From an uncultured delta proteobacterium (GTDB taxonomy: Bacteria > Desulfobacterota > Desulfobacteria > Desulfobacterales > B30-G6), in NCBI GenBank assembly GCA_963701385.1, contig CAVOZW010000006.1, positions 75,720 through 139,719 of the forward strand: 64,000 bases of DNA, given 5' to 3'. The notes under the pieces are model-generated. The model made no database searches. It was not told the DNA's origin and saw nothing but the letters and a program-made list of their open reading frames with translations. Positions 1 through 49,160 of the stretch are shown here, one piece after another. Position numbers and translations under genes: made by a program. Numbering within the stretch: the first letter of the stretch is position 1; each line of letters opens with the position of its first letter.

Positions 1-2329
1 CATCTGTCTTCGCGCTCATAGATGCGGGAAGATACCCATAACAGATGTTCTTTCCAATGCTGTGTCCGTACCCTGAACTGGTGGTCACCCCTACCACTTT
101 TCCCTTGTGCAGAATAGGCGCACTCCCCTGGAGCATCAGTGGCTTTTCTGCATCGATAGTGAAAGTGCACAGCTTCCAAGCGGGACCTTCGGACTTGATT
201 CTTGCCAGGGCCTCCTTGCCGATAAAATCATCTTTATCAAGCGCGACACAAAAACCCAGGCCGGCATCGAATGGCGTGTATTCAGGAGATAGTTCGGAGC
301 CCCAGTCGGCATATCCTTTTTCCAGATGTGTGGAGGCGATGGTTCGGTATCCGGCGTTTTTCACACCGAGCTCCTGTCCGGCCTCCCAAAGCGTTTCATA
401 TACATGGCCCGCAAATTCTGTGGGAATATACAGCTCGTAACCGAGCTCTCCGACATAGGTCACACGAAAAGAAATGACCGGTGCATACCCCACACTGAAC
501 GATTTGCACGTTGCAAACGGAAAGCCGTCGTTGCTTAGATCTTCTTGGGTTGTCTTATTCAACAGCGCTCTCGATTTGGGGCCGATGACATTGATGACCG
601 CATAGGCCGACGTCACGTCCTTGAACGAAACATAGCCGTCTTCGGGCATGTGGTTTTTTATCCACCAGGAGGTACGAAGACCGAAAGCGGTACCGACAAC
701 GATCATAAATTTGTTTGTTGTCAAGCGAGCGACGGTCATGTCGCATTCAATGGTGCCGCGTGCGTTGCACATCTGGGTGTAGATCACTTTCCCGACAGGC
801 TGGTCGATTTGATTGGCGCAAAGCCGGTTTAACAACGCTAGAGCGTCTGGACCCTGCAGCTCGAATTTGCAAAAAGAGGTCTGATCGATGAGCACCACGT
901 TTTCACGCGCATTTCGATGTTCGGCAGCCACGTATTCAAACCAGTTCGGTATTTCGAAAGTGAGCGCATCTTGCGGTCGAATATCGTCCGGTGCAAACCA
1001 GTTGGCCCTTTCCCACCCGTACTTGGCCCCATAAACAGCACCTTTATTTTTAAGCTGGTAATAGAGAGGGCTGCGCCTCACCCCGCGAGCGGAGTCATGC
1101 TCTTCGTGCGGCCAATGAATGGTGTAATGTTTGCCGTAGAGTTCCCTGGTTCTCTCTAAGTTGTACTTGCGGCTATGGTGATAGGGGCCGAATCTTCGAA
1201 TGTCCAGGGGCCAGATATCGAGGCTTGGCTCTCCCTCGATAATCCATTCAGCCATCATTCGTCCGGCCCCACCGCCGGCAGCTATGCCGAAGGCGTTGAA
1301 TCCCGCAGCTACGAAGCAATTGTCGAGCTCTGGGGCCGGCCCCATAATGGCATCGCCGTCCGGAGTAAAGGCCTCTGGTCCATTGACCAGACGGGCAATA
1401 CCGGCTTCTTTAAGACACGGCGTTCGGTGCATGGCCGGATCCGACAGGGATTGGAAGTGATCATAGTCGGGTTCCAGCAGTTGGGATATGAAATCGTTAT
1501 CAACACCATTAACAGACCATGGGATGCCGTTGCGTTCATAGCCGCCCATGACCAGGCCACCCACTTCGTCCTTATAATAGAGAAGGCTGTCCTTGTCGCG
1601 GATGGTGGGTAGGTTCGAAGGCATCCCCTCGATCTCGTCGGTGACGAGAAACTGGTGTTGGAATGGAACCAGGGGTATGTTGACGCCGAGCATTTCCCCT
1701 ACCTGGTAGCCCCACATTCCCGTACAGTTGACGACGATATCACACTGAATATCGCCCTGGTCGGTTTTCACCACGCTGACCCGTTTCTTGTCGAATTCAA
1801 AACCGGTCACCAGCGTGTGTTCATATATGTGCGCACCTCGATTTCTGGCCCCTTTGGCCATGGCCTGGGTAATGCCCGCTGGATCCGCCTGGCCGTCTGT
1901 GGGCATAAAGGCTGCGCCGATGATATCATCGATGGTAATGATCGGGCAGAGGTCGTAGGCCTGCTTGGGCGAAATAATATTCATCTCCAGACCGAAACTG
2001 CGGGCCGTGGTAGCTCCCTTCTTGAGCTCGTACATGCGTTCTTTGGTGCTGGCCAGATGAAGACAGCCACTTTTTTTCCAACCCGTCGTCAATCCCGTTT
2101 CTGCCTCGAGTTGTTCGTAGAGACCGACGCTGTACTGCAGCATACGGGTAATGTTTCGTTCACTGCGCAATTGGCCCACAAGCCCGGCAGCGTGCCAGGT
2201 AGAACCGCTGGTCAGCTCTCCCTTTTCGAGTATCACCACATCTTTCCATCCCATTTTGGTAAGATGGTAAGCTGTGCTGCAACCAATAATGCCACCTCCG
2301 ATAATGACAACTTGTGCACGATCTTGCAT
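1..2329 (-). CDS. Dimethylglycine/sarcosine dehydrogenase-like FAD oxidoreductase fused to a GcvT-type (folate-binding aminomethyltransferase) domain; 3' end lies beyond the window
   Basis: Absent from the ORF track because it has no stop inside the window. Minus-strand reading from ATG 2329 (GGAG 7 nt upstream) gives MQDRAQVVIIGGGIIGCSTAYHLTKMGW (GxGxxG FAD fold). The frame appears open to position 1 (spot-checked: RMMAEWIIEGEPSLDIWPLD around 1200-1260; ...IGKNICYGYLPASMSAKTD at the edge). No minus-strand ORF fragments are listed in this frame. The long + strand ORFs here look like antisense shadows. Confidence 0.8.
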   Translation of the reverse strand, partial: MQDRAQVVIIGGGIIGCSTAYHLTKMGWKDVVILEKGELTSGSTWHAAGLVGQLRSERNITRMLQYSVGLYEQLEAETGLTTGWKKSGCLHLASTKERMYELKKGATTARSFGLEMNIISPKQAYDLCPIITIDDIIGAAFMPTDGQADPAGITQAMAKGARNRGAHIYEHTLVTGFEFDKKRVSVVKTDQGDIQCDIVVNCTGMWGYQVGEMLGVNIPLVPFQHQFLVTDEIEGMPSNLPTIRDKDSLLYYKDEVGGLVMGGYERNGIPWSVNGVDNDFISQLLEPDYDHFQSLSDPAMHRTPCLKEAGIARLVNGPEAFTPDGDAIMGPAPELDNCFVAAGFNAFGIAAGGGAGRMMAEWIIEGEPSLDIWPLDIRRFGPYHHSRKYNLERTRELYGKHYTIHWPHEEHDSARGVRRSPLYYQLKNKGAVYGAKYGWERANWFAPDDIRPQDALTFEIPNWFEYVAAEHRNARENVVLIDQTSFCKFELQGPDALALLNRLCANQIDQPVGKVIYTQMCNARGTIECDMTVARLTTNKFMIVVGTAFGLRTSWWIKNHMPEDGYVSFKDVTSAYAVINVIGPKSRALLNKTTQEDLSNDGFPFATCKSFSVGYAPVISFRVTYVGELGYELYIPTEFAGHVYETLWEAGQELGVKNAGYRTIASTHLEKGYADWGSELSPEYTPFDAGLGFCVALDKDDFIGKEALARIKSEGPAWKLCTFTIDAEKPLMLQGSAPILHKGKVVGVTTSSGYGHSIGKNICYGYLPASMSAKTD

Positions 2330-2381: not shown

Positions 2382-4385
2382 TTATTGTGTTGCCTCATCG
2401 ACGATTTCAGCAATATCTTTGACAAGCATGCTTGCCTGGCAATCCGAAATGCCGTCACCAAGCATGGTCACGCAAAACGGACAGGCCGCAGCCAAGGTTT
2501 TACAGCCGGTTGACAGTAATTCTTGCGCTCGTTCTATGTTGATGCGCTTCCCCAACGTCTCTTCCATGAACATTCTTGCACCACCGGCACCACAGCAAAA
2601 TCCCTTGTCTCCGCTGCGTTTCGGAAAAACCAGCGCGCCACTTGTGTTTATGCTGCGCAGGAGTTCACGCGGGGCATTGAAAATGCCGTTCCAGCGTCCC
2701 AGGTAGCAGGAATCATGAAAGGCAATTTCACCCAAAGAGACGCCGTTGGGTTTCAGGCGACCCTGTTTCACCATATCCAGTAAAAAGGCAGTGTGGTGAA
2801 GCACTTCAAAATTAGCGCCGAATTGAGGGTATTCATTCTTAAGGATGTTGTAACAGTGGGGACAGCTGGTTAGGATCTTTTTGGGCTTGTATTGATTGAG
2901 AATCTCCACGTTTTCCTGAATCATCGTCTGGGCCAGGTATTCGTTTCCCGCCCGGCGGGCCATATCTCCGTTGCAGCGTTCCTCAGGGCCGAGTATGGCG
3001 AAGTTGATGCCGGCTCTTTTCAACACCCTGACCAGCGCCCGCGATATTTTCTTGCCCCGGTCGTCGAAAGATCCGGCACATCCGACGAAATAAAGAACAT
3101 CGGCTTCTGGTTGATCCGACATAAGTGACACATCCATATCTTTGCACCAGTCAGCCCGGGTGTCATTGGAAAATCCCCACGGATTCGACTGGTTTTCCAG
3201 ATTCGTGAACGTCTCCTGCATTTCCTGCGGGAATGCAGCTTCCATAAGAACCCGGTGTTTTCTAACTTCGAAAATAATATCCAGGTGCTGGATATTGACA
3301 GGACAAATGTCTTCACAGGCCCTGCAGGTGGTACATGACCAGAGGACGTCCTCCGTCAATGGGGCCCCCTCTCGAAGCAAGGGCTCGATTGCGCCGACAT
3401 TTCCTGCCAGGAGTAGCTCTGATTGATCGAAAAGATCGTGTTTGACATCCGTCACCACCCTCTTGGGAGACAGCGGCTTGCCGGTGTTGTCTGCCGGACA
3501 CTGCTCCTGGCAACGGCCGCATTCCGTACAAGCATAGAGATCGAGCACCGATTTCCAGTTTAGATCCGACACGCGGCCGAGCCCGAAACTTTCCGCATTC
3601 TCATCGTCGATATCCGTTTTGATGATCGACTTTTCTCGTTCCAGTGGCTTTAAAAAAACATTGGGCGCGGCTGCCAGCAGGTGCAAATGCTTCGAGCCGG
3701 GAATATAAATGAGAAACCCAAGAATCGTCAGGACGTGGATCCAGTAAGATATTTCATAGCCAAACGCCAATTGACCTGCAGCCAGAACGGAAGGACCGAA
3801 AAGACCCGCCAAACCAGCTGAAACCGTGAGATGGCTTGCATAGTCAAAGCCGCCATCATCGATTTTAAGCATCTGAAAGGCATTCACAAAGTGAAATGAC
3901 AAGATGATCACGGCGGTAAAAAGAAGGATGAGTTTTGCATCCAGACTGTTAGATAAATATTCCGGTTTCTCAAACGTGCGTCTGTAAAGCGCATATCCTA
4001 GCCCTAGCAGAACAAAGAAAGCGAGGGTGTCTGCGACCAGGAGGTATGCACCATATATGCCGGGGGATAAATGAAAGGCGTGAAAGCCGGGGAACACACC
4101 CTGAATCATCAATTCCAGGGAGTGGGGTTGGACGGCAAGGAAACCGAAAAAGATCAAGGTATGCGCCAGGCCCGGAAGGAATTTTTTTCTGACATTCGAC
4201 TGACCGATTACGTCCGTTAGAAGCGTTTTGATCCGCTCGGGAAAACGGTTGACTGTAAGCCTTGGTTCACCTTTTACCGCCAGCATAATCCGCACAAGAC
4301 GCCTGACCCTGACAAAAAAAAGACTCAACGCGGCTACGACGAAAGCTGCCATTAAGAAAGATTTGATGATTGTGTAAGTACCCAT
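2382..4385 (-). CDS. Membrane-anchored Fe-S oxidoreductase, HdrD/GlpC/DsrK-like (N-terminal polytopic membrane domain, two [4Fe-4S] motifs, two CCG-type cysteine-rich domains)
   Basis: Tracked ORF 2382..4499. The likely start is ATG 4385 (MGTYTIIKSF), 40 nt after the upstream stop. The first ~290 aa are hydrophobic. They are followed by CTECGRCQEQCP and CTTCRACEDICP, then YFVGCAGSFD, SCPHCYN, HDSCYLGR and FCCGAGG. Confidence 0.8.
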   Translation of the reverse strand: MGTYTIIKSFLMAAFVVAALSLFFVRVRRLVRIMLAVKGEPRLTVNRFPERIKTLLTDVIGQSNVRKKFLPGLAHTLIFFGFLAVQPHSLELMIQGVFPGFHAFHLSPGIYGAYLLVADTLAFFVLLGLGYALYRRTFEKPEYLSNSLDAKLILLFTAVIILSFHFVNAFQMLKIDDGGFDYASHLTVSAGLAGLFGPSVLAAGQLAFGYEISYWIHVLTILGFLIYIPGSKHLHLLAAAPNVFLKPLEREKSIIKTDIDDENAESFGLGRVSDLNWKSVLDLYACTECGRCQEQCPADNTGKPLSPKRVVTDVKHDLFDQSELLLAGNVGAIEPLLREGAPLTEDVLWSCTTCRACEDICPVNIQHLDIIFEVRKHRVLMEAAFPQEMQETFTNLENQSNPWGFSNDTRADWCKDMDVSLMSDQPEADVLYFVGCAGSFDDRGKKISRALVRVLKRAGINFAILGPEERCNGDMARRAGNEYLAQTMIQENVEILNQYKPKKILTSCPHCYNILKNEYPQFGANFEVLHHTAFLLDMVKQGRLKPNGVSLGEIAFHDSCYLGRWNGIFNAPRELLRSINTSGALVFPKRSGDKGFCCGAGGARMFMEETLGKRINIERAQELLSTGCKTLAAACPFCVTMLGDGISDCQASMLVKDIAEIVDEATQ

Positions 4386-4425: not shown

Positions 4426-5961
4426 TCATCCGGTAGGTTTCTTTTTGTTGTCAAGTACCAGTGTCGCCGGATCAAAGTCGGGGTTTTTCGCTTGAACACC
4501 CCATTCTTTTTCCACTTCCGTCACAAACCTTCTTAAATCATCGGCCACGCCATCAGGCAGTGCTGCCGGTTGATGGTTGACCAATAGTTCTTTGACCCTT
4601 TCATTGGCCAAATCATAAGGGTCTGGTTTCCCGGCATTGATCCAGGTGGTTCGATTCATGCGTTTAAAAAATTGCGGCCTACTTTGTGTGCGCATATGTT
4701 TCAGGGTCATCGGTGACATCAGAAAATCAGATTTATAGCCACCCGCCCTGACTTCATCCACACATAATGTCTCATCACTGACGACAACCCCTCCCAGAAA
4801 ATACTTAACCATATCGATAATGTCGCTATCCAATAACAATTGGGCATAATCCACAACCATGCCACACTCCAACATTCCTGCTCCGTATAGGACATTGTTC
4901 CCTGACATTGCCGCAATGAGAGCTGTTAGAGTCTTTTCATGGCCGGCTTGTACACCCCCGGCGATAGGGCTATCCGTCTACGTACCGCCGCTCCAGGATG
5001 GTACTTTGTAAAATTGTGCCATTTGGGCATTCATGGCAGCAAACAACGCCATTTCCGGAGAACCCACCGCAGCTTCGGCGCTTTTCAGATCCATCGAGGT
5101 CGTTGAACTGCTGCAAATCACCGGGGCTCCGGGTCGAACTGCTTGGTGCATCACGACACAGGCCAGAAATTCGGCATTCTGAACTGCCTGAGTGCCTGCC
5201 AAGGTAATTGGACTGGTAGCGCCCGACAACGCCATCGTTGTAAAGCGAACAGGAATGCTGAGTTCGGCGGCCTTCATACCGATCTCGCAGCAATGTTTGA
5301 CCAGACGCAAAGGGGTTACCGGGCAGGTTGAAGCGCATATCAGAGGATTATCCACCAAGGTGTCTTCTCCACCGGCTATGATGGCTGACATCTGATAAAT
5401 TTTTTCCAGACACTTGCCGTCACCAGGTCCCAAGCTTACCGGTTTGTCCGTGTTATTCACCAGTGCTTCATAATTATGGAGTGTGTAGGTGATGGGGTCT
5501 ACATCCAGTGAAGAAACCGGTCGATGACAAACGCCATAAGCATCCAATGCATCCATTAATCTTGTTCCGGCTGCCAGATCCTTTTTGGTCGAGTCCCGAA
5601 TGTCACCGCTATTGATATCGACAACGCTGACACCTTCGCCAAATGCGGTGAACGTCACTCTTTTACCTTCCATGATGTAGCTTTTATCATGGTTACGTGC
5701 GCCCAGAACAATTCTGGACGGGGCTGTCCGTATGGCTTTTTCTACAAGGTAGTGAGGAATTTTGACTATTTTTTTGTCCTTGTCTACCCGGCAGCCGATG
5801 GAATGAAAGAGATCAATGGCGTCATCATCTTCTACATAAACACCGGTTTTTTCGAGTATTTCAAGGCTGGCATAATGGATATCGGTAATCTCATCGTCGG
5901 TCAACACCTTGAAATCAACACCTTTAAGTTGAAATTTGCCGCTACAAATGGCACGATTCAT
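4426..5961 (-). CDS. mttB: MttB-superfamily (trimethylamine/quaternary-amine:corrinoid) methyltransferase with one in-frame TAG at 4978..4980; candidate pyrrolysine protein (511 codons)
   Basis: Tracked ORFs 4978..5961 and 4426..4908 share one frame. They are joined by TAG plus 23 stop-free codons (TDSPIAGGVQAGHEKTLTALIAA). There is a strong SD before 5961 only (AAGGAGGAAGAAAATG). The amber is codon 328 of 511. Confidence 0.8.
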
Positions 5962-6060
5962 TTTCTTCCTCCTTTGATAACGTTGGTGAACATTTCATTG
6001 TTATCCTCGTGGTTCAGAAAGGCCCTATGGTTGTTCCGGCGTCGATCCGAGCGTGTCTTG

Positions 6061-8704: not shown

Positions 8705-10009
8705 TCAGTGGAGCAAACCCGGAAGAAACAAAACAAGTTTTGGGAACAGCATCAGAACAAAGATACACAGAATATAGGCAGGTAAAAAATAGGCCACCCC
8801 CTTGAAAACATCTTCCAGGGGTACATCTTTTGCCATACCGCCAACAACATAGGTGGTCGCGCCCACCGGTGGTGTGACAGCACCCAGGGTTGTCACCACC
8901 GTGATGGTGACGCCAAACCAGATGGGGTCATAACCGAGTTCCATGGCGACAGGAAAGAAAATAGGGATCGTAATCAAAAGCAGTGCCAGGGCATCCATCA
9001 CGGCACCCCCCACAATGTAAATGCCAAAGATGATGGCCATGATGACCATGTCCGGAACAGGCAATCCCACAACCCATGACGCGATGTCATACGGAATTCG
9101 GGTTGCCGCTAGGAATCGACCGAATACCATGGCACCGGCAACGATGACGATCACCATACAGGAGACCCGAATGGTATCGGTAACAGCTTTCATGAAACCC
9201 GATAAGGTGAGCTTTCGCTGAACAACACTGAGCAGTATGGCAAAGAGAGACCCCACAGCACCGGCTTCCGTGGGCGTAAAAAACCCAAAATACAGGCCCA
9301 TCATCACCAGCAAGAACAGAATGGCCATTTCAAAAGCACCCGAGAGACCCTTTATCTTCTCAACAAAGGTGGTTCGGGGGCCCATCGGGCCCCAGTCCGG
9401 ATGCATTGTGCAGACAACATAGACGGTCAAAATCAAGAAAATAGCCAGAATAATACCGGCCCCGATTCCACCATAAAAGAGGCGTGCGATGGACTGCTCG
9501 GTGGAAAGCCCGATAACGATCAGGACCACGCTGGGTGGGATCACCACACCCAGTGTCGAGCCACATGCAATTGCCCCCGTACTCAGTCTCGAATCGTAAC
9601 GATATTTTTTCATCTGCGGAAGCGCTACGGTGGTCATGGTGGCAGCCGTAGCTGCGTTTGAACCACAAATCGCCGAAAATGCCGAACAAGCCAGAATGGT
9701 CGCCATGGCAACGCCACCGCGAATCTGGCCCACCCACCGATAGGCCGCTTTGTATAATTTTTCGTTGACGCCCGAATAAAACGCGATCTGGCCCATGAAT
9801 ATAAACAAAGGGATGACGGTCAGACCATACTTGGAAAATGTCTCCCACAAAACAGAGCCCAACATGTTCAAGCCTGCTTTGAAAGAGATTAGGTAACAAA
9901 AACCGCAGAATCCCACGATGCCCATGGCAAACCCCACCGGCGTACCGAGTAAAAAGAGCATCAACAAAAGGACGACGATGCCGAGAATGCCTATAACAGC
10001 CGGGGTCAC
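8705..10009 (-). CDS. dctM: TRAP transporter large permease
   Basis: 434 aa, polytopic, typical DctM N-terminus. The GTG start overlaps the dctQ stop (GTGA). Confidence 0.9.
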   Translation of the reverse strand: MTPAVIGILGIVVLLLMLFLLGTPVGFAMGIVGFCGFCYLISFKAGLNMLGSVLWETFSKYGLTVIPLFIFMGQIAFYSGVNEKLYKAAYRWVGQIRGGVAMATILACSAFSAICGSNAATAATMTTVALPQMKKYRYDSRLSTGAIACGSTLGVVIPPSVVLIVIGLSTEQSIARLFYGGIGAGIILAIFLILTVYVVCTMHPDWGPMGPRTTFVEKIKGLSGAFEMAILFLLVMMGLYFGFFTPTEAGAVGSLFAILLSVVQRKLTLSGFMKAVTDTIRVSCMVIVIVAGAMVFGRFLAATRIPYDIASWVVGLPVPDMVIMAIIFGIYIVGGAVMDALALLLITIPIFFPVAMELGYDPIWFGVTITVVTTLGAVTPPVGATTYVVGGMAKDVPLEDVFKGVAYFLPAYILCIFVLMLFPKLVLFLPGLLH

Positions 10010-10497
10010 GATTTTGTCTCCTTAGCGGGTATGAGTTGTCTTAGTAAATCTGTAAGAAGAATCAATGCAAGTACCCCGCACCCGAGGGCCACGGCATAGG
10101 TGAAAGGGTAATAGATGATTCTAAGCGTTTCCGTGACTTCACCGGTGGTTCTGAGGGTGTTTGCCTTTATCGCCAATTGCCATCCGGCCAATATGAAAAA
10201 TATACAGCACATGCCGTTGTTGATTGCCGATAAGACCGAGCGCGTTTTTTGCGGAAAAACATTTACCAGCACATCAACGGCAATATGACCTTTGTTGATT
10301 TGGGTGTAGGCCAGGGCAAAGGCTGTCAACAGGGCGCCTGCAAATCCCATGAGTTCATACGTCCCGCTGACGGGCACCCAAAAGATGCGAAAAGCGATAT
10401 TGGCACATGTCAAAAGGACCATGAAAATGAGAATAAGGCCCGCCAGAAATGTCAGTGTTTTGTTAAGGTACGCTGTAATCTTCGTTAAATATATCAT
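10006..10497 (-). CDS. dctQ: TRAP transporter small permease
   Basis: 163 aa with four hydrophobic helices, lying between dctP and dctM. Confidence 0.85.
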   Translation of the reverse strand: MIYLTKITAYLNKTLTFLAGLILIFMVLLTCANIAFRIFWVPVSGTYELMGFAGALLTAFALAYTQINKGHIAVDVLVNVFPQKTRSVLSAINNGMCCIFFILAGWQLAIKANTLRTTGEVTETLRIIYYPFTYAVALGCGVLALILLTDLLRQLIPAKETKS

Positions 10498-10510
10498 GAC
10501 AAATCCGAAG

Positions 10511-10590
10511 CACGAAATTCGAAATACGAAACAATACTCAATGACACAAATTCGATATTTGGATTTGTTTCGTATTTCGATATTCGAATT
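10511..10590 (-). other. Intercistronic stem-loop between dctP and dctQ
   Basis: cgaaatacgaaacaa (10520..10534) is the perfect reverse complement of ttgtttcgtatttcg (10565..10579). Flanking bases extend the stem imperfectly, and the loop is 30 nt. A related single arm lies at 44097..44120. Confidence 0.6.
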
Positions 10591-10614
10591 TAGAGTTTTA
10601 TTTCGACCGCATGT

Positions 10615-11640
10615 TTACTTCCCAGCGTGTTTCGCGGTCAAGGCCTTGATGTCCTTTACAATGGCTTCACCCGGATATCCCTTGGCCGTAGCACTTTTGA
10701 TCCAGTCTTCGGTCATGAAGGTCAGCTTGGCATCCCATTTGGCTTTTTCAGCAGCCGACAAGCGGATGAATTCAACACCTTGTTCTGTTTCCGACCATGC
10801 ATTGGCCTCTTTCACGTGGTTGTCCATGTATGTGCCTGTCCAAAGGGCCTGCTCCACACGTAAGTTTTCCATAACCGTTTTGACATCTTCGGGCAATGCA
10901 TTCCATTTCTCAATATTCATGACCACGGCAAAAGGATAAATAACCGTTTCGGTTAAGGTGACATACTTGCAGATCTCTGCAAATTTGAAATCTTTCATAA
11001 CCTCGGTCGAGGTAAACAAGCCCTGTACGACGCCTTTTTGCAAGGCCTCGGGGGTTTCCGACATGGGCATGCCGACCTGGTTGGCACCCCAGGCTTTGAG
11101 GATCTGGGCGGCCCCACCGGAGGCTCTCAAATCCAGCCCTTTGATATCATCCAAATTTCTTACCGGTACCTTGGACATGATATTGGCCGGCGCCGTTGTA
11201 AACATGGTCAGAACCCGGACTTTGGCAAAGGACGTGGGCAGATATTTCTGATAGAGATCCCAGAGTACCAGGCTGCCGGTTTTCGCATCCGGCAATCCCA
11301 ACGGCAGACTGGTGGCGTTGGTGGTGACAAAACGGCCGGGCTGGTAAGCCATGCAGAGGCACCCGATGTCGGCAGTTCCGGCGATGACACCGTCCATCAT
11401 GTCCATGGCACCCAGGAGCGTTCCCCCTGGATAGGTGTCGATGGCAACCTTGCCTGCGGTTCTTTTCTCGACTTCCGTTTTCCAGCGTTCCATTTGAACA
11501 CAGGGAAACGTCGGGGCCGGCGGAAAATTGGCATAGCTGAGTTTAACGGGTCCGGCCACCGTCATGCAAGGCACCAGAAAAGTTCCCACAACGACGACGA
11601 CAAAGAAAATGGCACATAAAAGAACAAGTTTTTTCTTCAT
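10615..11640 (-). CDS. dctP: TRAP transporter solute-binding protein (DctP family)
   Basis: 341 aa, signal anchor then periplasmic domain. Strong RBS AAAAAGGAGGATCTATCATG. Confidence 0.85.
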   Translation of the reverse strand: MKKKLVLLCAIFFVVVVVGTFLVPCMTVAGPVKLSYANFPPAPTFPCVQMERWKTEVEKRTAGKVAIDTYPGGTLLGAMDMMDGVIAGTADIGCLCMAYQPGRFVTTNATSLPLGLPDAKTGSLVLWDLYQKYLPTSFAKVRVLTMFTTAPANIMSKVPVRNLDDIKGLDLRASGGAAQILKAWGANQVGMPMSETPEALQKGVVQGLFTSTEVMKDFKFAEICKYVTLTETVIYPFAVVMNIEKWNALPEDVKTVMENLRVEQALWTGTYMDNHVKEANAWSETEQGVEFIRLSAAEKAKWDAKLTFMTEDWIKSATAKGYPGEAIVKDIKALTAKHAGK

Positions 11641-11742: not shown

Positions 11743-14153
11743 CTAGTGCGGTTCACCGCATTCATCGCCTTCTTTTGTCTTGATGGCATCGAGGATCTTT
11801 TCCGGGGTAATGGGCAGTTCCGTCATTCGCACACCAATGGCATCGTATATGGCATTGGCGATTGCCGGCGCTGTGGGAACGAGTCCTGGTTCGCCGATTC
11901 CTTTGGCGCCATACGGTCCATCCGCATCTCCCAGTTCCACGACGACCGCTTCCACAGGGATCGCTATCCTTGGCTGTCAGAATATTGTAATCACGAAAAC
12001 TTGGGTTCATTACCTTGCCTTTTAATAGTTTTATCTCTTCCGTCAAGGCGAACCCGGTTCCCGTGTAGACAGCGCCGTATATCTGTCCCTTGATCAAGGT
12101 CGGGATTGATGGCTTTTCCAACATCATGGGCGGCAACCATATTCAGAATTTTGACTTGGCCGGTTTTCTTGTCCACCTCCACTTCTACGCCGGTGGTCCC
12201 AAACGCATAGGTCATGGAATAATTGCCTTTGAATTCCCTGTCCAGCATTTGGGTCGGTGGGTCGTAAAAAACTTCCGCCATGATGGTTTGGCTTTCCCCG
12301 GTGCCCACATGAAGTCCCTGTTTTAATACCTGGCTTACATCCATACCGCAATAGGGATTATTTGGTTCCGCTTTCAAGAAAATCTTTCGTTCCTGAATGT
12401 CGAGATTGTCCGGGTCGCCAAACAGGCTGAAATCGATATCCGGCAAATCGAAATCAGGGTCCATGCGTTGCTTTCTTTTTAAATTCGATTGAATAATCTT
12501 GGGCATCTGGAGCGTTGCCATTTCAAGAATCTGGCGGCGTATTTTCTTGCAGGCTTTGATGGCCGCATTGCCGGCGATGAAGGTATGCCTGCTGGCATGG
12601 GTTCCGGCATCCCACAGTGCCAGGGCGGTATCGCCGATCGTAAACGATATGTCATCGGGCCGAAAACCGAGCGCTTCGGCGATAATCTGCGAAAGCACGG
12701 TACTGGATCCCTGCCCCTGGTCTGTGCCACCACTGATGACATCCACATGCCCCTCTTCATCGACCTTGATCCGCATGCCGTGCCCATCTGATTTATATAC
12801 CCGGGCACCACCGGCCACGTGTATCAGGGATGCCATGCCGACACCCCTGCCGTTTCTCTTGCCGTGTTTCTCGTCCCATGATATTTTTTTCTTCACCGCC
12901 TGGATACAGTCTTCCAGCCCACAGGTGGTTATTTTAAGTCTCATGGGTGTGATATCACCACTGCGGTTTTGGTTGATGCTTCTGAATTCAGCCGGATCGA
13001 TTCCGGCGGCCTCTGCCAGTCGATCCATGGATGTTTCCACCGCAAACGTCGCCTGGGGTGTGCCGTAACCGCGCATGGCCTGGCAATAGATATTGTTCGT
13101 ATACACACAGCTTGCTTTGAAAAAAACATTGGCTACGCGATAAAGGGATGAAATGGGGGTCATCATGACCGATGGTGTCGTTGCCCCCCAGGAGGTGTAA
13201 GCGCCGTTATCAAGAACAGCTTCCACATACCGGAAAGTGAGCTTCCCATTTTTGTCGCATCCCTGTTCGATATCGAAAACAGCCGGCTGTCTTGGGGGTA
13301 GCGCTTTGAATTCCTCTTCCCGGGTAAACAGTATTTTTACAGGCTTTCGTGTTTTCAGGGCAAGCTGTACGGAGATGAATTCATAGATATCGGTATCCAG
13401 CTTGGTACCGAAGCTGCCCCCCACCACCATATTGCGAACGCGTATTTTTTTTCCCTGCAAACCAATTTTTGAGAAGTAATCCGCTAAACGTTGCTTGGCC
13501 CCAAAAATGACGTTGGTCTGACTGTAGAGGGTCAAGTTGTTGTTGGCGTCGAAATCCGCCACACACCCGCTGGTGCCCATACAGCACTGGTTGACCCAGG
13601 TCGTCGAGACACGATCTTTTACGATGAATGCGGAATCCTTTCTGCCCTGATCCAGATCGCCGGCACTGAATTGCCATGGCAAGGGTAAAATATTGCTGCG
13701 AATCGGTTTCCCACGCGCATCGACCTCGTGAACCAGGGGTGCTTCCTTCTTCATGGCCTCGAACGGGTCGAAGACAGCCGGCAGTTCTTCATATTCAACT
13801 TCGATCAGGTCGAGTGCGTCCTGGGCGATCTCAGGCGTGACCGCGGCAACGGCAGCGACTTCATCCCGAAATTGGCGAACACGATCCCGCTTGAGAACCG
13901 TCTGGTCTTTCAAGAACCCCACCCGCACGTCCGGAATATCCTGGCCCGTGAGAACGGCGCGGACGCCGGGCAGTTTTTTTGCGTTTGTGGTGTCGACACT
14001 CTTTATCCGGGCATTCACATAGCTGCTGTAAAGTATTTTACCATACAGCATGCCGGGGAGCTTGAGGTCATCGACATACACCGCTCGACCGGTCACTTTG
14101 TCCGTTTCCAGGGTTCTTGGAATATTTTTACCCACATAGTGGAATGTTGTCAT
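11743..14153 (-). pseudogene. Molybdopterin-binding large subunit of a xanthine-dehydrogenase/CO-dehydrogenase-family hydroxylase, interrupted by two +1 frame shifts (possibly assembly errors)
   Basis: Three tracked ORFs in three successive frames (11991..14234, 11762..12136, 11743..11955). They read through as ...VAAHDVGKAINP|TLIKGQIYGAVYTGTGFALTEE...ILTAKDSD|[24 protein letters not shown]. Junctions lie at about 12101..12104 and 11957..11959, both at a CCC run in the sense strand. Likely start is ATG 14153 after AGGAGG. Confidence 0.8.
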
Positions 14154-14236
14154 CTTGCCTCCTGAATTTGTTTTGCCGAAACTGGACGCTTTAAAGTATT
14201 TGACAAAAAGCGCCCGCCTTATGCCAAACACCATTG

Positions 14237-17022: not shown

Positions 17023-18810
17023 TCAGGTTCGTGAGGTATCCGGGTCAGCATCCAAGAACGCATTGCGATCGCTCATAGAAGCTCGTAAACCTCGGGTAGC
17101 CTCTTGATCGACTTTGAGGGACATCGTATCGATCACCACGCCATAATCGTTCTTGGCCTTTTCAATGCTCACATACCCGCAGGTGACATCCCTTTCAACA
17201 TCCATGATATCTCTCTCCAGCGGGGCCCCGAACCCTCCCCCGCCGGCACTCTGAAATTCGATGATATCTCCGGCATCGCACAGCGTCAGACCGCTGGGGT
17301 CTGCGGGTATATCGTTTTTTAGAAAGCGGGCCTTGGTGCCGGGTTTCCCACCAAATATTCCCTGGGGCGGATACCGATAGCGGCCGGCCTGGACAGCGAT
17401 GGCAACAGGGGGTACGGGCCCAAGCGCATCATCCGGGACACGAATACGCATGCGTCTTCCCAAACCGCCTCTCATTTTGCCGGCACCACCTGAATCACAG
17501 ATGAGTTCTCTTGCGAGTACCGTCAACGGGGTATCGCTTTCCAATATTTCAACCGGTGTGTTGGCACCATTGGCTGGGAAAATGGCACACTGGTGCCCGT
17601 CTTTGGTCCGACTTGCCCCCAGACCGCCGCCCCGAATGATCATGGTGTGGAAGGGTTTTCCATCATGTCGTTTTCCATAAAAAATATTGGTCTGTGCCGG
17701 CGTCCCGCCGCTGTCTGACATGATCCGGTCCGGCACGGCCGCGGACAGTGCCCTGAAAACCATTTCGGTCATGAAATGGCCGACCTGCATCCGTGCAGCG
17801 ACGGCAGCCGGGAACGTACAATTGACAACACAGCCTTCCGGCGCCGTCATCGTTAGCGGACGGATGGCTCCTTCATTGATGGGAAGATCCGGATCGAAGA
17901 CACTTTTAATTGCCATAAAAACATAGGCATAGGTAAAGTTATAAACCACATTGACCCCCCAAGTGACCTGGGGCGAGGTGTTCGAAAAATCCACTCGAAT
18001 GTCAGTTCCCTTTATCGTAACCGTTAGACAGATATTGATATCCTTTCGGTCTCCCGCCCCTTCGATAACGCCTTGGTAAGGATAAACGCCGTCGGGAATA
18101 ATGGCAATGGCCTTGCGCATACTCTGTTCGGTTCTCTCGATGATTTCATCGGCAAGATCTTCTAAGGTATCGAGATCTTCATCGGCCATCATTTCAATAA
18201 TTTTTTCGCCGCAGACATGGTTCGCCGCAACCTGGGAACGGATGTCACCGGTTACCTCCTCGGGCGTTCGAACATTCCAGCGGATCATTTTGAGAACATC
18301 CTCATTGAGGACACCCGCGTCGTATAATTTAATGCGCGGGATAAAAAGGCCTTCTTCAAAGACCTCACGATTATCCGACGACACCCGGCCGCCGATATCC
18401 GAGTGATGAAATACGCAAGCCGTAAATGCCACCGGCCGACCCTTGTAAAAAATAGGGCTCAAAACGCAGACATCGTTCAAATGACCCGCCAGCAACCACG
18501 GGTCGTTCACGATGATCACATCACCGCTCCTGTAATCCTCCAGCGGCGTCGACTGAATCACTTTCTTGACACCCAGGGCCATGGCCCCGGCCTGTCCCGG
18601 TGTACAAAACGTGCCTTGAACCAGTTCTTGCCCCCGATGATCCGTAAACATGCATGTATAATCATGCGCGTCGCGCAAAAGGCTCGAAAAGGCCGTTCTG
18701 GCCACCGATGCATCGGCTTCATCGACGATGGATATCAAACGTCGCCAAAGGATTTCGAGACGGATGGGGTCGAAATTCGATTTGAGTTGCTGGTTTGATT
18801 CAGTTGACAT
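17023..18810 (-). CDS. hyuB: Hydantoinase B/oxoprolinase family protein (beta subunit of an ATP-dependent hydantoinase/carboxylase-type enzyme)
   Basis: 595 aa. DPIRLEILWRRLISIVDEA...FSSLLRDAHDYTC... is a typical HyuB N-terminus. Confidence 0.9.
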   Translation of the reverse strand: MSTESNQQLKSNFDPIRLEILWRRLISIVDEADASVARTAFSSLLRDAHDYTCMFTDHRGQELVQGTFCTPGQAGAMALGVKKVIQSTPLEDYRSGDVIIVNDPWLLAGHLNDVCVLSPIFYKGRPVAFTACVFHHSDIGGRVSSDNREVFEEGLFIPRIKLYDAGVLNEDVLKMIRWNVRTPEEVTGDIRSQVAANHVCGEKIIEMMADEDLDTLEDLADEIIERTEQSMRKAIAIIPDGVYPYQGVIEGAGDRKDINICLTVTIKGTDIRVDFSNTSPQVTWGVNVVYNFTYAYVFMAIKSVFDPDLPINEGAIRPLTMTAPEGCVVNCTFPAAVAARMQVGHFMTEMVFRALSAAVPDRIMSDSGGTPAQTNIFYGKRHDGKPFHTMIIRGGGLGASRTKDGHQCAIFPANGANTPVEILESDTPLTVLARELICDSGGAGKMRGGLGRRMRIRVPDDALGPVPPVAIAVQAGRYRYPPQGIFGGKPGTKARFLKNDIPADPSGLTLCDAGDIIEFQSAGGGGFGAPLERDIMDVERDVTCGYVSIEKAKNDYGVVIDTMSLKVDQEATRGLRASMSDRNAFLDADPDTSRT

Positions 18811-18865
18811 CTGGATTTTCTTTCTTTTATATTTCGAGTGGTTATTTAAATAGTGTTAAGTTTTA

Positions 18866-20215
18866 GGTTTAAGGTTTGACGGTAGACGTCAAGTTTTTCG
18901 TGTCCAAGTCCCATGTTATTTCGATTTCGATAGCGATCCCGATTTCGATTTCGATTTCGATCATAGCGACAACCGCGCGCCTAAGTGAAGAATCTCGCAG
19001 CAAGCTGCGAGGAATGTTCAATATTTAACTGTGTTATAAGCAAGACGTCAATCGAGATACCCAGAGCTTCACGTCTCACGACTTACGTTTTATTGGGTTC
19101 GAAATCGCTATCGCTATCGGTATCGAAATCGATTTCCCCAGTTTCATAATGATCAGTGGAAAAGATAAAGGGGACGTTCCTTGATATATAAGTTTCTATC
19201 CATCCATTGAAGAACCTCGCAGCAAGCTGCAGAGTCCCTGGCCTTCTCGTAGACCCAACGCTACACAGCTTATCGAATGACAGTAGACGTCCAGTTTTTC
19301 GGGTCCAAGTTCCATATTTCTTCGATTTCGATCATAGCAACAACCGCGCTCCGAATTTAACTGTTTTATAAGCTGGACGTTAATCGAAATACCCAGAGCT
19401 TCGCGTCTCACGACTTACGTTTCATCGGGTTCGAAATCGTATCGCCATCGGTATCGGTATCGAAATCGATTTCCCCAGTTTCATAAGCAGCAGGCTCTTC
19501 CTTGACGCAGTAACCCCTTCCTCCCAATCGACTGAGCATGGCGGCCATGCGATCCAATTCAGCTTTATGATTTAAGCTTTCCTGCTCTTCCAGCACCTTG
19601 CCGACTACCAGAACATCCTGAACAGCAGCACATTCCAATGCTGAGCCACGTGCGATCTCAAAATAACGCCTTCTATCTGCTTTCGACGTCTTGCCATTAC
19701 CTTCCGCAATATTTAGCGGTATCGATTGACTGGCACGAAGCCACTGATCCCGTGCAGATCGATGAATTCCCGTCAGAACTCCTGCCTTCTCGTAGACCCA
19801 AGCAACATAGCCTATCGCAAGACGGTAGACGTCCAGTTTTTCGTGTCCAAGTCCCATGTCATCTCGATTTCGATAGCGATCCCGATTTCGATTTCGATCA
19901 TAGCAACAAACGGGCTCCATGGTGAAGCATCTCGCAGCAAGCTGTGAGGAATGTTCAATATTAAACTGTGTTATAAGCAAGACGTCAATCGAGCTACCCA
20001 GCGTCACGTCTCACGACTTACGTTTTATCGGGTTCGAAATCGCTATCGCTATCGGTATCGCAAGACGATAGACTCCAGTTTTTCGATCCAAGTCCCATGT
20101 CATCTCGATTTCGATAGCGATCCCGATTTCGATTTCGATCATAGCAACAACTGTGCTCCTAAGTGAAGAAGAATGCGCTCGCTGTTGCGGTTAGTTAAAA
20201 CCTAATACCCACCCA
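18866..20215 (-). repeat. Tandem array of four copies (one intact, three decayed) of a four-helix-bundle-protein cassette with a conserved leader and spacer
   Basis: Start-codon remnants gacgtc(c/a)agtttttcg(t/g)gtccaagt(c/t)ccat end at 18914, 19315, 19857 and 20098. 3' tails tcacgacttacgtt begin at 19076, 19408 and 20011. The same spacer precedes each copy (GAAATC hexamers, hairpin CTCGCAGCAAGCTGCGAG, ...aactgtgttataagcaagacgtcaatcgag). Confidence 0.85.
19408..19857 (-). CDS. Four-helix-bundle protein (TIGR02436 / 23S rRNA intervening-sequence protein family, Avd-like fold)
   Basis: 149 aa from ATG 19857: MGLGHEKLDVYRLAIGYVAWVYEKA...RDQWLRASQSIPLNIAEGNGKTSKADRRRYFEIARGSALECAA. The NIAEG and GS..E signature matches this family. 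The tracked 199-aa version only adds translation of the repeat leader. Confidence 0.8.
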   Translation of the reverse strand: MGLGHEKLDVYRLAIGYVAWVYEKAGVLTGIHRSARDQWLRASQSIPLNIAEGNGKTSKADRRRYFEIARGSALECAAVQDVLVVGKVLEEQESLNHKAELDRMAAMLSRLGGRGYCVKEEPAAYETGEIDFDTDTDGDTISNPMKRKS

Positions 20216-20231
20216 CCACCTCCTACCGCAA

Positions 20232-22316
20232 TTACATTTCAATCCAAACAAACCCGTAAGAATCCACTGTGCAGGCGGCATCTTCACCGATCACGATGGT
20301 CGATTCTCTTTCTTCTACAATTGCCGGTCCCTGGATGGCAGCACCCGGAAAGAGTTTCATTCGATCGTACACGTCGTGCGGCACAAACATCTTGCGCTGC
20401 AATGAAAATGCAGGCCGTGTTCCTTTCAAAGCATCTTCCAGTCGATCTGTCTGATGTTCAAATCTGGGCAGCTGAAACGGTCTTTGCGGTTCACTGACGC
20501 GGACCTTGAAGGTTACAAATTCGATCTGTGTTTCCGGATATGTCCTGCCATAGAGCTTCTCATAGACCTGGTCGAAAAGATGACGAATTTCCGAGACGCT
20601 CCAATCATAAAAGGGCTTGTTTTCCAAGAGGATATCGGTTTCGGCACCCTGGCCGATAAACCGCATCATAAGCGTTCTCTCAATAATCAAGGTATCGTCA
20701 TCGACAGCCTTTTGCAATATGTCGGCGCCTTCGGTCTCCAGGGTCTTAAAAAGGGTTTCGATTTCATTGAAATCGGCCTCGTCAAGCCTGATCCGGTGAC
20801 TTCGGGTCAGATCAAATGCCACCGGCGCCGTAAAAAAACCCAGGGCGGACCCAACACCGGCCAAGGGGGGTACCAGTATTCGAGGGGCATTGATTTTTTT
20901 TGCCAAACCAAAGGCATGAACCGGTCCGGCACCGCCAAACGCCGATATGGTTACGATGTTCGGGTTGCCGCCTTTTTCCGCGATGTGCGTTTTTGCCGCA
21001 GCCGCCATGGTTTCATTGATCAGGTCGTGGATACCAAATGCGGCCTCCACCAGTGTCGTGCCCAGCGGTTGAGCGATTTTTTCCTGAATCGCATTCTCGG
21101 CGGCCGATTTGTCCAGCACCATGCTGCCTCCCAGAAAATAATCCGGGTCCAGGTATCCCAATACCAGATCTGCGTCGGTAACGGTAGGGTGAATACCGCC
21201 TTTGCCATAGCAGACCGGTCCGGGATCTGCGCCAGCACTCTCCGGCCCCACCTGAAGCAGACCCATTTTGCTGATCTTTGCCATGCTTCCGCCGCCGGCA
21301 CCGATTTCCATGAGATCGACAACAGGCACCTGAATCGGTAGACCACTGCCCTTCTTGAATCGCTGAACCCTTCCGACCTCGAAAGTGGAGACCATGCCGG
21401 CCTGCCCTTTCTGTATCAGACACGATTTTGCCGTCGTACCTCCCATGTCGAAACAGAACATGTCCTTGATCTGGAACAGGCTGCCATAGTGCTGGGATGC
21501 AATCACGGCCGCCGTAGGGCCTGATTCGATAATGCGTACCGGGAATTTACGGGCGGTTTCGATGGAGGTAATTCCGCCGCTGGATAGCATAATAAACAGC
21601 TTTCCCTTGAATCCCAGGGCATCCAGTCTTGAGGACAGCTTTTCCAGGTATCTGGATGTTATGGGCTTGACATATGCGTTGGTAACCGTTGTGCAGGTCC
21701 TTTCGTATTCACGAATCTGCGGTAAAACCTCAAACGATGTGGATAGCGAGAGCTCCGGGGCGAGCCGCTCTATCGCCTCTTTGAGCACGTTTTCATGAAT
21801 CGGGTTTTCGTAGGAATTGAGAAGACACACCGCCAAAGATTCGATCTGCAGGTCCTGAAGTTCTCGCAATACGGCCGCGATGTCTTCTGCTTGGATTGGC
21901 AGCAAGACCCTGCCGTCGCTGGCCACCCGTTCGGCGACTTCCTTCCTGAGAAACCGGGGTACCAGGGGTTCAGGATACTCCGCAAAAATATCGTAAGCAT
22001 CGTAGCGCAGTTCTCTGCCTAGTTCCAGCACATCCCTGAAACCCTGGGTGGTGATGAGGCCCGTTCTGGCACCTTTTCTTTCGATGATGGCATTGATCAC
22101 CAGGGTTGTTCCGTGGATGAATTCATCGGTAAAGGCCATGAATCCGGGCGTGCTTATCTCGAGCTGGCCTACGCCTTCTGCAACGGCTGTGGACGGGTCT
22201 GAAGGGGTCGTCAGACACTTGTGCGTCTGGAATTCACCAGTATGATCATTCACCAGCACAAAATCGGTAAACGTGCCGCCAATATCACAGCCCAAACGAA
22301 AGGCATTTTTTTTCAC
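20232..22316 (-). CDS. hyuA: Hydantoinase A/oxoprolinase family protein (alpha subunit)
   Basis: ...KKNAFRLGCDIGGTFTDFVLV... is a typical HyuA N-terminus. The tracked start 22328 is TTG without an RBS. GTG 22316 sits 5 nt after GGAGA and is preferred. Confidence 0.9.
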   Translation of the reverse strand: MKKNAFRLGCDIGGTFTDFVLVNDHTGEFQTHKCLTTPSDPSTAVAEGVGQLEISTPGFMAFTDEFIHGTTLVINAIIERKGARTGLITTQGFRDVLELGRELRYDAYDIFAEYPEPLVPRFLRKEVAERVASDGRVLLPIQAEDIAAVLRELQDLQIESLAVCLLNSYENPIHENVLKEAIERLAPELSLSTSFEVLPQIREYERTCTTVTNAYVKPITSRYLEKLSSRLDALGFKGKLFIMLSSGGITSIETARKFPVRIIESGPTAAVIASQHYGSLFQIKDMFCFDMGGTTAKSCLIQKGQAGMVSTFEVGRVQRFKKGSGLPIQVPVVDLMEIGAGGGSMAKISKMGLLQVGPESAGADPGPVCYGKGGIHPTVTDADLVLGYLDPDYFLGGSMVLDKSAAENAIQEKIAQPLGTTLVEAAFGIHDLINETMAAAAKTHIAEKGGNPNIVTISAFGGAGPVHAFGLAKKINAPRILVPPLAGVGSALGFFTAPVAFDLTRSHRIRLDEADFNEIETLFKTLETEGADILQKAVDDDTLIIERTLMMRFIGQGAETDILLENKPFYDWSVSEIRHLFDQVYEKLYGRTYPETQIEFVTFKVRVSEPQRPFQLPRFEHQTDRLEDALKGTRPAFSLQRKMFVPHDVYDRMKLFPGAAIQGPAIVEERESTIVIGEDAACTVDSYGFVWIEM

Positions 22317-22353
22317 GACATTCTCCAATTATTTTTGATACCAACGTATCACC

Positions 22354-24124: not shown

Positions 24125-24526
24125 TTAAAGCGATAAGCTGATCTTCTCTATTCCTTCAATCATGTCATCAAATGACGTTCCGCCCGGATAGACACCCTTG
24201 ATACCCATTTGTTTCAGCTTTGGAATGTCTAGCGCAGGTATCACGCCGCCCACCACGACCCCAGTGGATTCGATTCCTTCTTTTTTCATCGTTTCGAGTA
24301 GTTTTTCGCAGATGGAGAGATGGGCGCCGGACATGATACTCAGGCCAATGATGTCGACGGCTTCTTGAAGGGCTGTTCTGACAATCTGGTCAACCTGTTG
24401 ATGAAGCCCGGTATAAAGCACCTCCATGCCGGCATCTCGCAGCGCCAGCGCAACGATCTTTGCGCCCCTGTCATGACCGTCCAATCCAGGCTTGGCAATG
24501 AGTATTTTTATTTTTTTTCCACGCAT
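24125..24526 (-). CDS. Acyl-CoA mutase small subunit, cobalamin-binding domain
   Basis: 133 aa. ILIAKPGLDGHDRGAKIVALALRDAGMEV contains the DxHxxG base-off B12 motif. Confidence 0.9.
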   Translation of the reverse strand: MRGKKIKILIAKPGLDGHDRGAKIVALALRDAGMEVLYTGLHQQVDQIVRTALQEAVDIIGLSIMSGAHLSICEKLLETMKKEGIESTGVVVGGVIPALDIPKLKQMGIKGVYPGGTSFDDMIEGIEKISLSL

Positions 24527-37095: not shown

Positions 37096-37209
37096 ATTTG
37101 CTGCACGAATTTTTTTGAAGGGTTCGTGGATTTGAAACATAGGGAATAACAGGTCATCGGAAACCTAACACATATACCCTTGGACCCTTTCTCCCAATCA
37201 GGAGGTATA

Positions 37210-49000: not shown

Positions 49001-49160
49001 TGAGGACATATTCCTTCTGGTCCTCGGTCCGGACATGATAATTCTGATCCCGTTCGCTGGGAAGCGGCCTGAATATGCCACAAACACCGAAGATTTCCTT
49101 TGCGATTTTCTCTGCTTCAGCTGCTGAGAAATGAGGCGCTTGGGTCACGATGGATGACAT
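46061..49160 (-). pseudogene. Fusion protein: APH/homoserine-kinase-like phosphotransferase + M23 peptidase-like domain + class III aminotransferase (phospho-lyase-like), split by one +1 frame shift (possibly an assembly error)
   Basis: ORF 47580..49160 carries the kinase loop VIHNDGNDNN and IDYGD, then the M23 start ...[16 protein letters not shown] 46061..47629 continues in the adjacent frame with ...[31 protein letters not shown], then ...[14 protein letters not shown]...[15 protein letters not shown]... The junction is at about 47604..47617 and includes an A5 run in the sense strand. Confidence 0.8.

Follow-up and report, generated by a model that had tools for sequence, protein, structure and literature searches.

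The stretch of DNA analysed here (hereafter the window, meaning all 64 kb of it) comes from contig CAVOZW010000006.1 of an uncultured Desulfobacterales bacterium, and our analysis concerns a gene of the MttB methyltransferase family on its minus strand, the reading frame of which is interrupted by a single amber codon (TAG). A preliminary description of this DNA had proposed that the amber codon might specify pyrrolysine (Pyl), as it does in MttB of Methanosarcina barkeri. Four features make up the gene, with coordinates counted from the first letter of the window:

4426..5961, minus strand: full mttB-family gene, a homologue of Pyl-type trimethylamine:corrinoid methyltransferases (567.9 bits to TIGR02369; match to 7XCL, E=6e-93).
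5968..5974, minus strand: Shine-Dalgarno sequence AAGGAGG, 6-12 nt upstream of the ATG at 5961.
4978..4980, minus strand: in-frame TAG (codon 328), the predicted pyrrolysine codon, which aligns with X334 of 7XCL and is conserved in relatives.
4426..4977, minus strand: portion downstream of the amber codon (183 codons and the TGA), which includes Y359 (equivalent to the catalytic Y364); its ratio of nonsynonymous to synonymous substitution (dN/dS) is 0.12-0.23 against 8 relatives.

Translation of the reverse strand confirmed that this is a single-frame gene with an in-frame amber codon, as the preliminary description had read it. From 5961 to 4426 the frame comprises 511 codons, with 327 amino acids ahead of the TAG at codon 328 and 183 amino acids between it and the terminal TGA (4426-4428), and the amber codon is the only internal stop. 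In the read-through product, codon 328 is flanked by the residues VPSWSGGT-O-TDSPIAGGVQAGHEK (O, predicted pyrrolysine), while the next Met codon, the ATG at 4908, is separated from the TAG by the 23 residues TDSPIAGGVQAGHEKTLTALIAA. The claim that only the 5961 start is preceded by a Shine-Dalgarno sequence held as well, since no comparable motif lies ahead of the ATG at 4908. Matches to the Pfam MTTB profile split consecutively across the TAG, with profile positions 30-337 matched by the N-terminal part and 347-498 by the C-terminal part; therefore, the two open reading frames (ORFs) are parts of one MttB-superfamily protein, which had likewise been claimed. Among the window ORFs of at least 200 codons, mttB is the only one with a long homologous run past a TAG (183 codons, with homology at the family level), whereas the other real TAG-ended genes of the window extend only 3-66 codons past their stops. 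The continuation thus exceeds what chance would give.

With an X placed at codon 328, the full product scored above the curated cutoff of 525 bits for the NCBIfam equivalog TIGR02369 ('trimeth_pyl'), and it is a full-length member of the MttB superfamily (PF06253). A sequence search of the PDB matched M. barkeri MttB (7XCL) over residues 7-486, scoring 315 bits vs 211 bits for the structures of the non-Pyl enzyme MtgB. In this match, codon 328 aligns exactly with X334 (a K in the 7XCM sequence), the very alignment that had been set beforehand as a check, and position 334, as given in the preliminary description, is correct for the M. barkeri enzyme. The surrounding block is ungapped (PSW-SGGT-X-TDS vs PSY-VAGS-X-SDA) and is followed by the motifs QAGHEKT and YGAGMLE; a multiple alignment also confirmed the Pyl column. 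In 86 full-length homologues encoded by a single ORF, the same column holds assorted sense residues (L, C, M, W, A, H, and others), as had been expected of non-Pyl relatives. The active site is likewise conserved in the alignment. The M. barkeri residues G110, T111, M249, and Y364 are described as activating Pyl or moving upon MttC binding (PMC9842639), and G110, M249, and Y364 are kept here as G108, M243, and Y359. The glycine betaine-binding residues of MtgB (Y97, R312, H348, and F356; PMC13080624), which we mapped by hand from the 2QNE alignment (chain numbering equals the paper numbering plus 16), are replaced here by E109, W323, Y359, and G367. Three of these four sites resemble M. barkeri MttB (Y329, Y364, and G372), and none provides a basic residue for a carboxylate.

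The amber codon is shared with relatives over a wide range of identities. About 45 of the best 120 database homologues are 326-333 aa long, mostly exactly 327 aa, at 94% down to 40% identity, which means that gene prediction ends all of them at one and the same codon. In the DNA itself, TAG occupies the site in 7 of 7 metagenome loci that were read (L001-L007), with the conserved frame continuing behind it. One of these loci (L001; ENA ERZ25039514 contig_66689) is a second assembly of the same organism, and the other TAG-bearing metagenome contigs are 42-57% identical. A genome scan with a 6-sequence alignment, limited to one genome per species, returned 36 loci, and the 30 that cover the site all have TAG, at 98% to 40% identity. 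They include a dozen Desulfobacterales/Desulfosarcina metagenome-assembled genomes (MAGs) with 93-98% identity; Ca. Adiutrix and termite-gut Deltaproteobacteria are also represented, as are the complete genome CP026657 at ~55% and a Bacillota MAG at 40%. The terminal stop codons of the TAG-bearing loci vary (TGA, TAA, or TAG). Thus, the TAG is not an assembly error, an outcome that had been named at the outset as one that would refute the pyrrolysine reading. In comparisons with 8 species-level relatives, dN/dS was 0.02-0.06 before the TAG, rose to the values listed above after it, and was 0.13-0.40 over the 23-codon stretch that leads from the TAG to the first Met; by this measure, all 183 post-TAG codons, including those 23, are under purifying selection. 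The gene is annotated everywhere as two ORFs, consisting of a 327-aa and a roughly 160-aa 'MTTB' fragment, and the starts called for the downstream ORF lie 61-103 nt after the TAG and differ among loci, with no conserved restart. Codon 352, the Met at 4908, is ATG only in the clade of the window gene; it is TTG (Leu) in the Adiutrix clade and neither of these in other clades. Several MAGs hold two to three paralogues of this TAG-mttB clade. Desulfosarcina sp. MAG_Ve_Sed_11 (L040, JARFPZ010000289.1) has three copies, one of which is interrupted again by an in-frame TAG 55 codons further on, while the other copies run for 177 codons; the interrupted copy may be a pseudogene or an assembly artefact.

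Taken together, these observations make it very probable that the locus is an intact pyrrolysine-dependent methyltransferase gene of the MttB family in a Desulfosarcina-like member of the Desulfobacterales, with trimethylamine (TMA) as the likeliest substrate. Under the proposed mechanism, the ribosome would initiate at the ATG at 5961 and insert pyrrolysine at UAG codon 328 by means of Pyl-tRNA(CUA) charged by PylS, both of which would be encoded elsewhere in the genome. Translation would then run on to the TGA at 4426, and the product would be a TIM-barrel enzyme of 510 residues. If this enzyme works as M. barkeri MttB does, the tertiary amine, most likely trimethylamine, would add to the pyrroline imine of Pyl328 as a quaternary adduct, with Y359 and the carbonyl of G108 presumably assisting. 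A corrinoid protein would then accept a methyl group at its Co(I), and in a sulfate-reducing bacterium this group would probably be handed on to tetrahydrofolate (THF).

Several points weigh against this assignment. Identity to the characterised M. barkeri enzyme is only ~37%, and T111 of that enzyme is replaced by E109, although only the backbone of T111 is used in M. barkeri MttB (PMC9842639). TAG is also the terminator of ~10 other real genes of the window, roughly a fifth. The preliminary description had counted ten such ORF ends, and all ten are indeed TAG, although the one at 11743 is not a separate ORF but the tail of a frameshifted molybdopterin-subunit gene; its statement that TAG also serves as an ordinary stop here was correct and describes a state typical of Pyl-using bacteria. 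In such bacteria, the pyl genes are thought to be conditionally expressed, which was reportedly described by Prat and colleagues in 2012 and by Kivenson and Giovannoni in 2020. The decoding machinery itself did not appear near the gene. ARAGORN, which recognised tRNA-Pyl in three control loci (L044, L045, and L046), found no tRNA in the 64-kb window, and thus no pylT; Pfam and NCBIfam searches revealed no PylS, PylB, PylC, or PylD among its ~50 ORFs; and neither PylRS (M. mazei query) nor PylB, PylC, PylD, PylSn, and PylSc (queries from the fetched loci) gave a tblastn match in it. Similarly, the 36 genome loci of relatives, taken with 10-kb flanks, contained neither tRNA-Pyl nor PylRS, and PylB, PylC, and PylD were absent within 10 kb of the gene in every close relative. 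No MttC, RamA, or MtbA/MetH-like gene was found adjacent to mttB, and two MttC queries gave no tblastn match in the window or in the loci of this clade. The sole B12-binding protein of the window is a methylmalonyl-CoA mutase small subunit (24125-24526). An adjacent mttC, as in the canonical mttBC operons of L002 and L044, is a usual but not strictly defining feature of Pyl-MttB. Lastly, the dehydrogenase-like, electron transfer flavoprotein (ETF), and transporter genes around mttB, which are described below, do not by themselves point to TMA.

We presume that pylTSBCD is encoded elsewhere in the genome of this organism, because selection on the read-through frame is strong and because comparable cases have been published; MttC, too, is presumably encoded elsewhere. 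Desulfobacterales genomes carry pylTSBCD together with an MttB amber codon at position 327 of 485 (PMC8318568), and the Olavius delta-1 symbiont has a full Pyl system (PMC1976440). Pyl genes were also encountered in several of the contigs that we retrieved. As an exception among the genome loci of relatives, PylC, PylD, and PylSn are present at a non-Pyl MttB locus of a Desulfobacterales MAG (L042), while two contigs from 'Deltaproteobacteria bacterium' MAGs encode tRNA-Pyl and PylSc (L046) or PylSc, PylD, PylB, and PylC (L047), and a partial cluster of PylC, PylD, and PylSc occurs on L049; the latter three contigs belong to other 'Deltaproteobacteria bacterium' MAGs and unplaced bacteria, and none of the four loci is tied to the window organism. 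A search with PylSc of D. hafniense gave only Firmicutes among the best 120 of 3,729 matches, and a PylSc profile search for the window lineage was dominated by Clostridia. Among the ~25 full-length PylSc types from a search of 50%-clustered representatives, four (P0245, P0255, P0265, and P0261) point to Desulfobacterota by names and trees. However, these were rejected as the PylS of the window lineage, as their contigs (L046, L047, and L049) come from other organisms, and so were P0248 and P0462, whose pyl clusters come from unrelated samples. A literature search on pyrrolysine in Desulfosarcina and on strain Smac51 yielded nothing useful. Separately, matches to Rfam PYLIS_2 (mtbB) at L036 11800-11899 and L044 7809-7908 mark TAG-containing dimethylamine methyltransferase genes near a TAG-mttB; L036 is from a Bacillota MAG, while L044 is an unplaced 2.45-Mb contig that also carries tRNA-Pyl, PylSc, PylB, and PylD.

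The genes flanking mttB are arranged in the order dctPQM, a cysteine-desulfurase-like gene, a hypothetical gene, mttB(TAG), an Fe-S/CCG oxidoreductase gene, a dehydrogenase-like gene, and the ETF alpha and beta genes, the last two of which lie outside the window. The annotated features are as follows:

8705..11640, minus strand: tripartite ATP-independent periplasmic (TRAP) transporter genes upstream of mttB, syntenic in relatives (dctP 10615-11640, dctQ 10006-10497, dctM 8705-10009).
2382..4385, minus strand: membrane oxidoreductase with Fe-S and CCG domains (HdrD/GlpC/DsrK-like), directly downstream of mttB.
1..2329, minus strand: dimethylglycine/sarcosine-dehydrogenase-like gene (DAO, FAO_M, and GCV_T domains), cut by the start of the window.

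This order is kept in several species-level relatives, and the synteny of the Fe-S/CCG oxidoreductase, which is probably the electron outlet for ETF, extends to L008, L011, L013, L015, L016, and L020. In the window, mttB and the Fe-S/CCG gene are ~40 nt apart, whereas in relatives a DeoR-family regulator lies between the two (L008 11549-12361, L013 11577-12371). L012 and L035 show two other gene orders in which the dehydrogenase-like gene accompanies mttB(TAG). The sister clade, consisting of Ca. Adiutrix and strain Smac51, has a different set of neighbours. In L024 (3310-19424; CP026657, strain Smac51) and in L006, two EutB genes, one EutC gene, and a bacterial microcompartment (BMC) shell protein gene lie on one side of the TAG-mttB, and genes for a HAD phosphatase, an APH-family kinase, an EamA transporter, and a non-Pyl MttB (545 aa) lie on the other. 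This region could be an island for the demethylation of choline or methylated ethanolamines. Two sets of genes farther afield are also worth recording: a gene for a creatininase-domain protein lies near a TAG-mttB paralogue in L018 (947-3337), and hydantoinase A and B genes occupy window positions 17023-22328, 11-16 kb from mttB. Together with the dehydrogenase-like gene, they hint at the catabolism of N-methylated compounds such as creatinine, N-methylhydantoin, and sarcosine. Between the hydantoinase B and A genes, at 19408-20007 on the minus strand, is a gene of the '23S rRNA intervening sequence protein' family (four-helix-bundle).

These neighbourhoods raise the possibility, which we consider unlikely, that the enzyme is Pyl-dependent but acts on a tertiary amine other than TMA, namely N,N-dimethylglycine in the window clade and N,N-dimethylethanolamine in the Adiutrix clade; pyrrolysine would then serve the same chemistry, forming a quaternary adduct from the uncharged amine. 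In keeping with a different substrate, the sequences of the window and Adiutrix groups branch together as a deep clade of their own, with 36-42% identity to the canonical Pyl-MttBs, and none of its ~30 loci has an adjacent MttC gene or pyl cluster, whereas canonical TAG-mttBs adjoin one or the other. In addition, linkage to a DAO/FAO_M/GCV_T gene recurs in three gene orders (that of the window and those of L012 and L035), the Adiutrix/Smac51 context is rich in ethanolamine-type genes (EutB, EutC, and BMC, with HAD, APH, and a non-Pyl MttB), and the creatininase gene adjoins the L018 copy. Nevertheless, the product passes the cutoff of the TMA-methyltransferase equivalog, the glycine betaine sites are not of the MtgB type and offer nothing basic to bind a carboxylate, the neighbouring dehydrogenase could handle dimethylglycine on its own, and gene neighbourhood is weak evidence of substrate. 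MtgB-type carboxylate binding was considered as a hint of dimethylglycine and rejected, since the relevant residues are not conserved.

The remaining alternatives deny that pyrrolysine is inserted at all. A genuinely split enzyme, made of a 327-aa N-fragment and a 160-aa C-fragment started from the Met at 4908, or a UAG read as a canonical amino acid, would agree with the two ORFs that gene callers annotate everywhere and with the fact that the Pyl machinery of the window genome is itself presumed. Both ideas seem very unlikely, however, given that the 23 codons ahead of the Met are conserved and evolve under purifying selection, that the Met lacks a Shine-Dalgarno sequence and is not kept outside the window clade, that the interruption sits precisely at the family's catalytic residue, and that the non-Pyl relatives are all single chains. 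Least probable of all is that the gene is a pseudogene with a nonsense mutation, or that faulty sequencing or assembly has turned a sense codon into TAG. The window does contain assembly defects, but these are indels rather than substitutions. The TAG, always at the Pyl column, recurs in the second assembly, in no fewer than 12 relatives at the species level, and in clades with only 40-57% identity, and the downstream frame is under purifying selection. Because the TAG is conserved, the frame behind it is under selection, and the Met is not conserved, we regard a pseudogene, a sequencing error, and a split gene as effectively excluded.

As for the assembly defects themselves, the gene for a molybdopterin-binding subunit of the xanthine-dehydrogenase family (11743-14234, minus strand) has frameshifts near 11950-12000, and its C-terminal tail corresponds to the 77-codon ORF ending with the TAG at 11743; L001 has an unbroken copy of 819 aa. 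A homologue of the indolepyruvate:ferredoxin oxidoreductase alpha subunit (61906-63847, plus strand) has a frameshift near 63385, where a tblastn alignment with its paralogue at 37180-39066 switches frame. At 46061-49160 on the minus strand, an ORF encoding APH and the first half of Peptidase_M23 (47580-49160) overlaps one encoding the second M23 half and a class-III aminotransferase (46061-47629), and the two are probably one fused gene with a frameshift at ~47580-47632. Conversely, L001 shows frameshift-like splits in DctM (216+233 aa) and in an FAD-binding subunit (154+139 aa), both of which are intact in the window. Thus, the two assemblies have indel errors at different places, while the TAG is present in both.

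A further signal lies in the RNA downstream of the amber codon, where three features overlap:

4878..4980, minus strand: match to Rfam RF02510, PYLIS_3 (mttB), beginning at the TAG (45.3 bits vs a gathering threshold of 38, model positions 1-100).
4852..4929, minus strand: lowest synonymous diversity in mttB, codons 345-370 (17-42 after the TAG), holding the ATG at 4908.
4866..4932, minus strand: predicted hairpin and candidate cis element, columns 49-115 counted from the T of the TAG (46-112 nt after the codon).

PYLIS_3 was the only Rfam match at gathering level in the window, and every other TAG-mttB tested also matched it, at 57-82 bits. Its consensus contains few pairs, however, four of which are non-canonical in the window, and the 126 nt around and after the TAG fold like shuffled sequences (z=-0.18). 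These observations give no support to the PYLIS_3 consensus as a real structure here, and the match seems mostly to reflect coding and sequence similarity. The dip in synonymous diversity (pS) is a separate matter. In a sliding-window scan with column shuffles as the measure of significance, nine species-level genomes of the window clade gave a pS of 0.068 at codons 345-364 vs 0.415 gene-wide, which is the minimum of the gene (0/5000 shuffles), and 15 sequences of the Adiutrix clade independently gave a minimum of 0.35 at codons 351-370 vs 0.627 (17/5000). Other stretches in which the protein sequence is invariant have a pS of 0.47-0.58. The predicted hairpin coincides with this dip. Across 24 sequences, two helices (columns 58-62/97-101 and 74-76/83-85) show 99-100% pairing. 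Each contains one covarying pair, and one of these pairs links two third-codon positions (UA in 16 sequences, CG in 6, and GC in 1). The covariation score was 0.178; shuffles gave 0.104 (0/500), and slid controls did not exceed 0.118. Folding of the 71-nt hairpin gave a z of -2.27 for the window sequence, with values from -0.6 to -2.2 for relatives. A longer basal helix of 9 bp (columns 49-57/107-115) was rejected, as it is only 80% paired and lacks compensatory changes. The hairpin could conceivably be a PYLIS-like element that aids the reading of UAG as pyrrolysine, with selection acting upon synonymous sites, but we think this doubtful and keep it only as a candidate because independent compensatory events are few and it starts 46 nt after the UAG. 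This is farther than is the case for bacterial SECIS elements, the mtmB PYLIS, or known recoding stimulators.

Pyl-dependent MttB was already described in Desulfobacterota in 2007 and 2021, and the window gene is a further case; only its neighbourhood and the synonymous-constraint/hairpin signal go beyond what was expected. Reading the amber codon as pyrrolysine nevertheless restores a complete enzyme from a split annotation and marks the organism as one that probably uses the 22nd amino acid and consumes methylated amines, which would put it in competition with methylotrophic methanogens in anoxic sediments or soils. The mttB clade is distinct and widespread, occurring in Desulfobacterales, Ca. 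Adiutrix, and termite-gut Deltaproteobacteria, and its members lie away from any mttC/pyl operon, within what appear to be catabolic islands for N-methyl amino acids or ethanolamine. If the synonymous constraint does reflect a read-through element, it would offer a mutable target for determining how bacteria separate UAG as stop from UAG as Pyl.

Compared with known systems, the RNA signal resembles PYLIS (RF02510; Methanosarcina mtmB) in that the match begins with the UAG and exceeds the gathering threshold and in that nucleotides downstream are constrained, but here the Rfam pairs are partly broken and the hairpin backed by covariation is a different one; Zhang and Gladyshev found no common structure in bacterial Pyl genes in 2007 (PMC1976440). 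With the non-Pyl members of the family (MtgB, 2QNE/9YCE; MtpB, MtcB, and MtyB), the window enzyme shares PF06253, the TIM-barrel, and presumably corrinoid-dependent N-methyl transfer, whereas those proteins have a sense residue in the Pyl column, act on quaternary amines, and, as the MtgB structures illustrate, match more weakly. M. barkeri MttB (7XCL/7XCM/7XCN; PMC9842639) shares the superfamily, the UAG column, G110/M249/Y364, and the GHEKT and YGAGMLE motifs. The window gene differs from it in being bacterial rather than archaeal, in having E109 for T111 and W323 for Y329, in lacking an adjacent mttC, and in its presumed downstream acceptor, which would be THF instead of coenzyme M; its product is also ~20 residues longer at the C-terminus than close relatives (505 aa). 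The genomes of the 'bbl' Desulfobacterales (Kivenson et al. 2021, PMC8318568) and Olavius algarvensis delta-1 (PMC1976440) encode pylTSBCD, a cognate corrinoid protein, and a MetH-like methyltransferase, some of them no more than 10 genes from mttB. The window and L001 together contain none of these within 58 kb on one side of mttB and ~15 kb on the other, and the neighbours are instead the dehydrogenase-like gene, ETF, the Fe-S/CCG oxidoreductase, and the TRAP transporter. Even so, these are likewise sulfate-reducing Deltaproteobacteria with an amber codon at ~327 and with TAG also in use as an ordinary stop, and the route proposed for them, from TMA through a corrinoid to THF and the Wood-Ljungdahl pathway, is the same as the one that we propose here.

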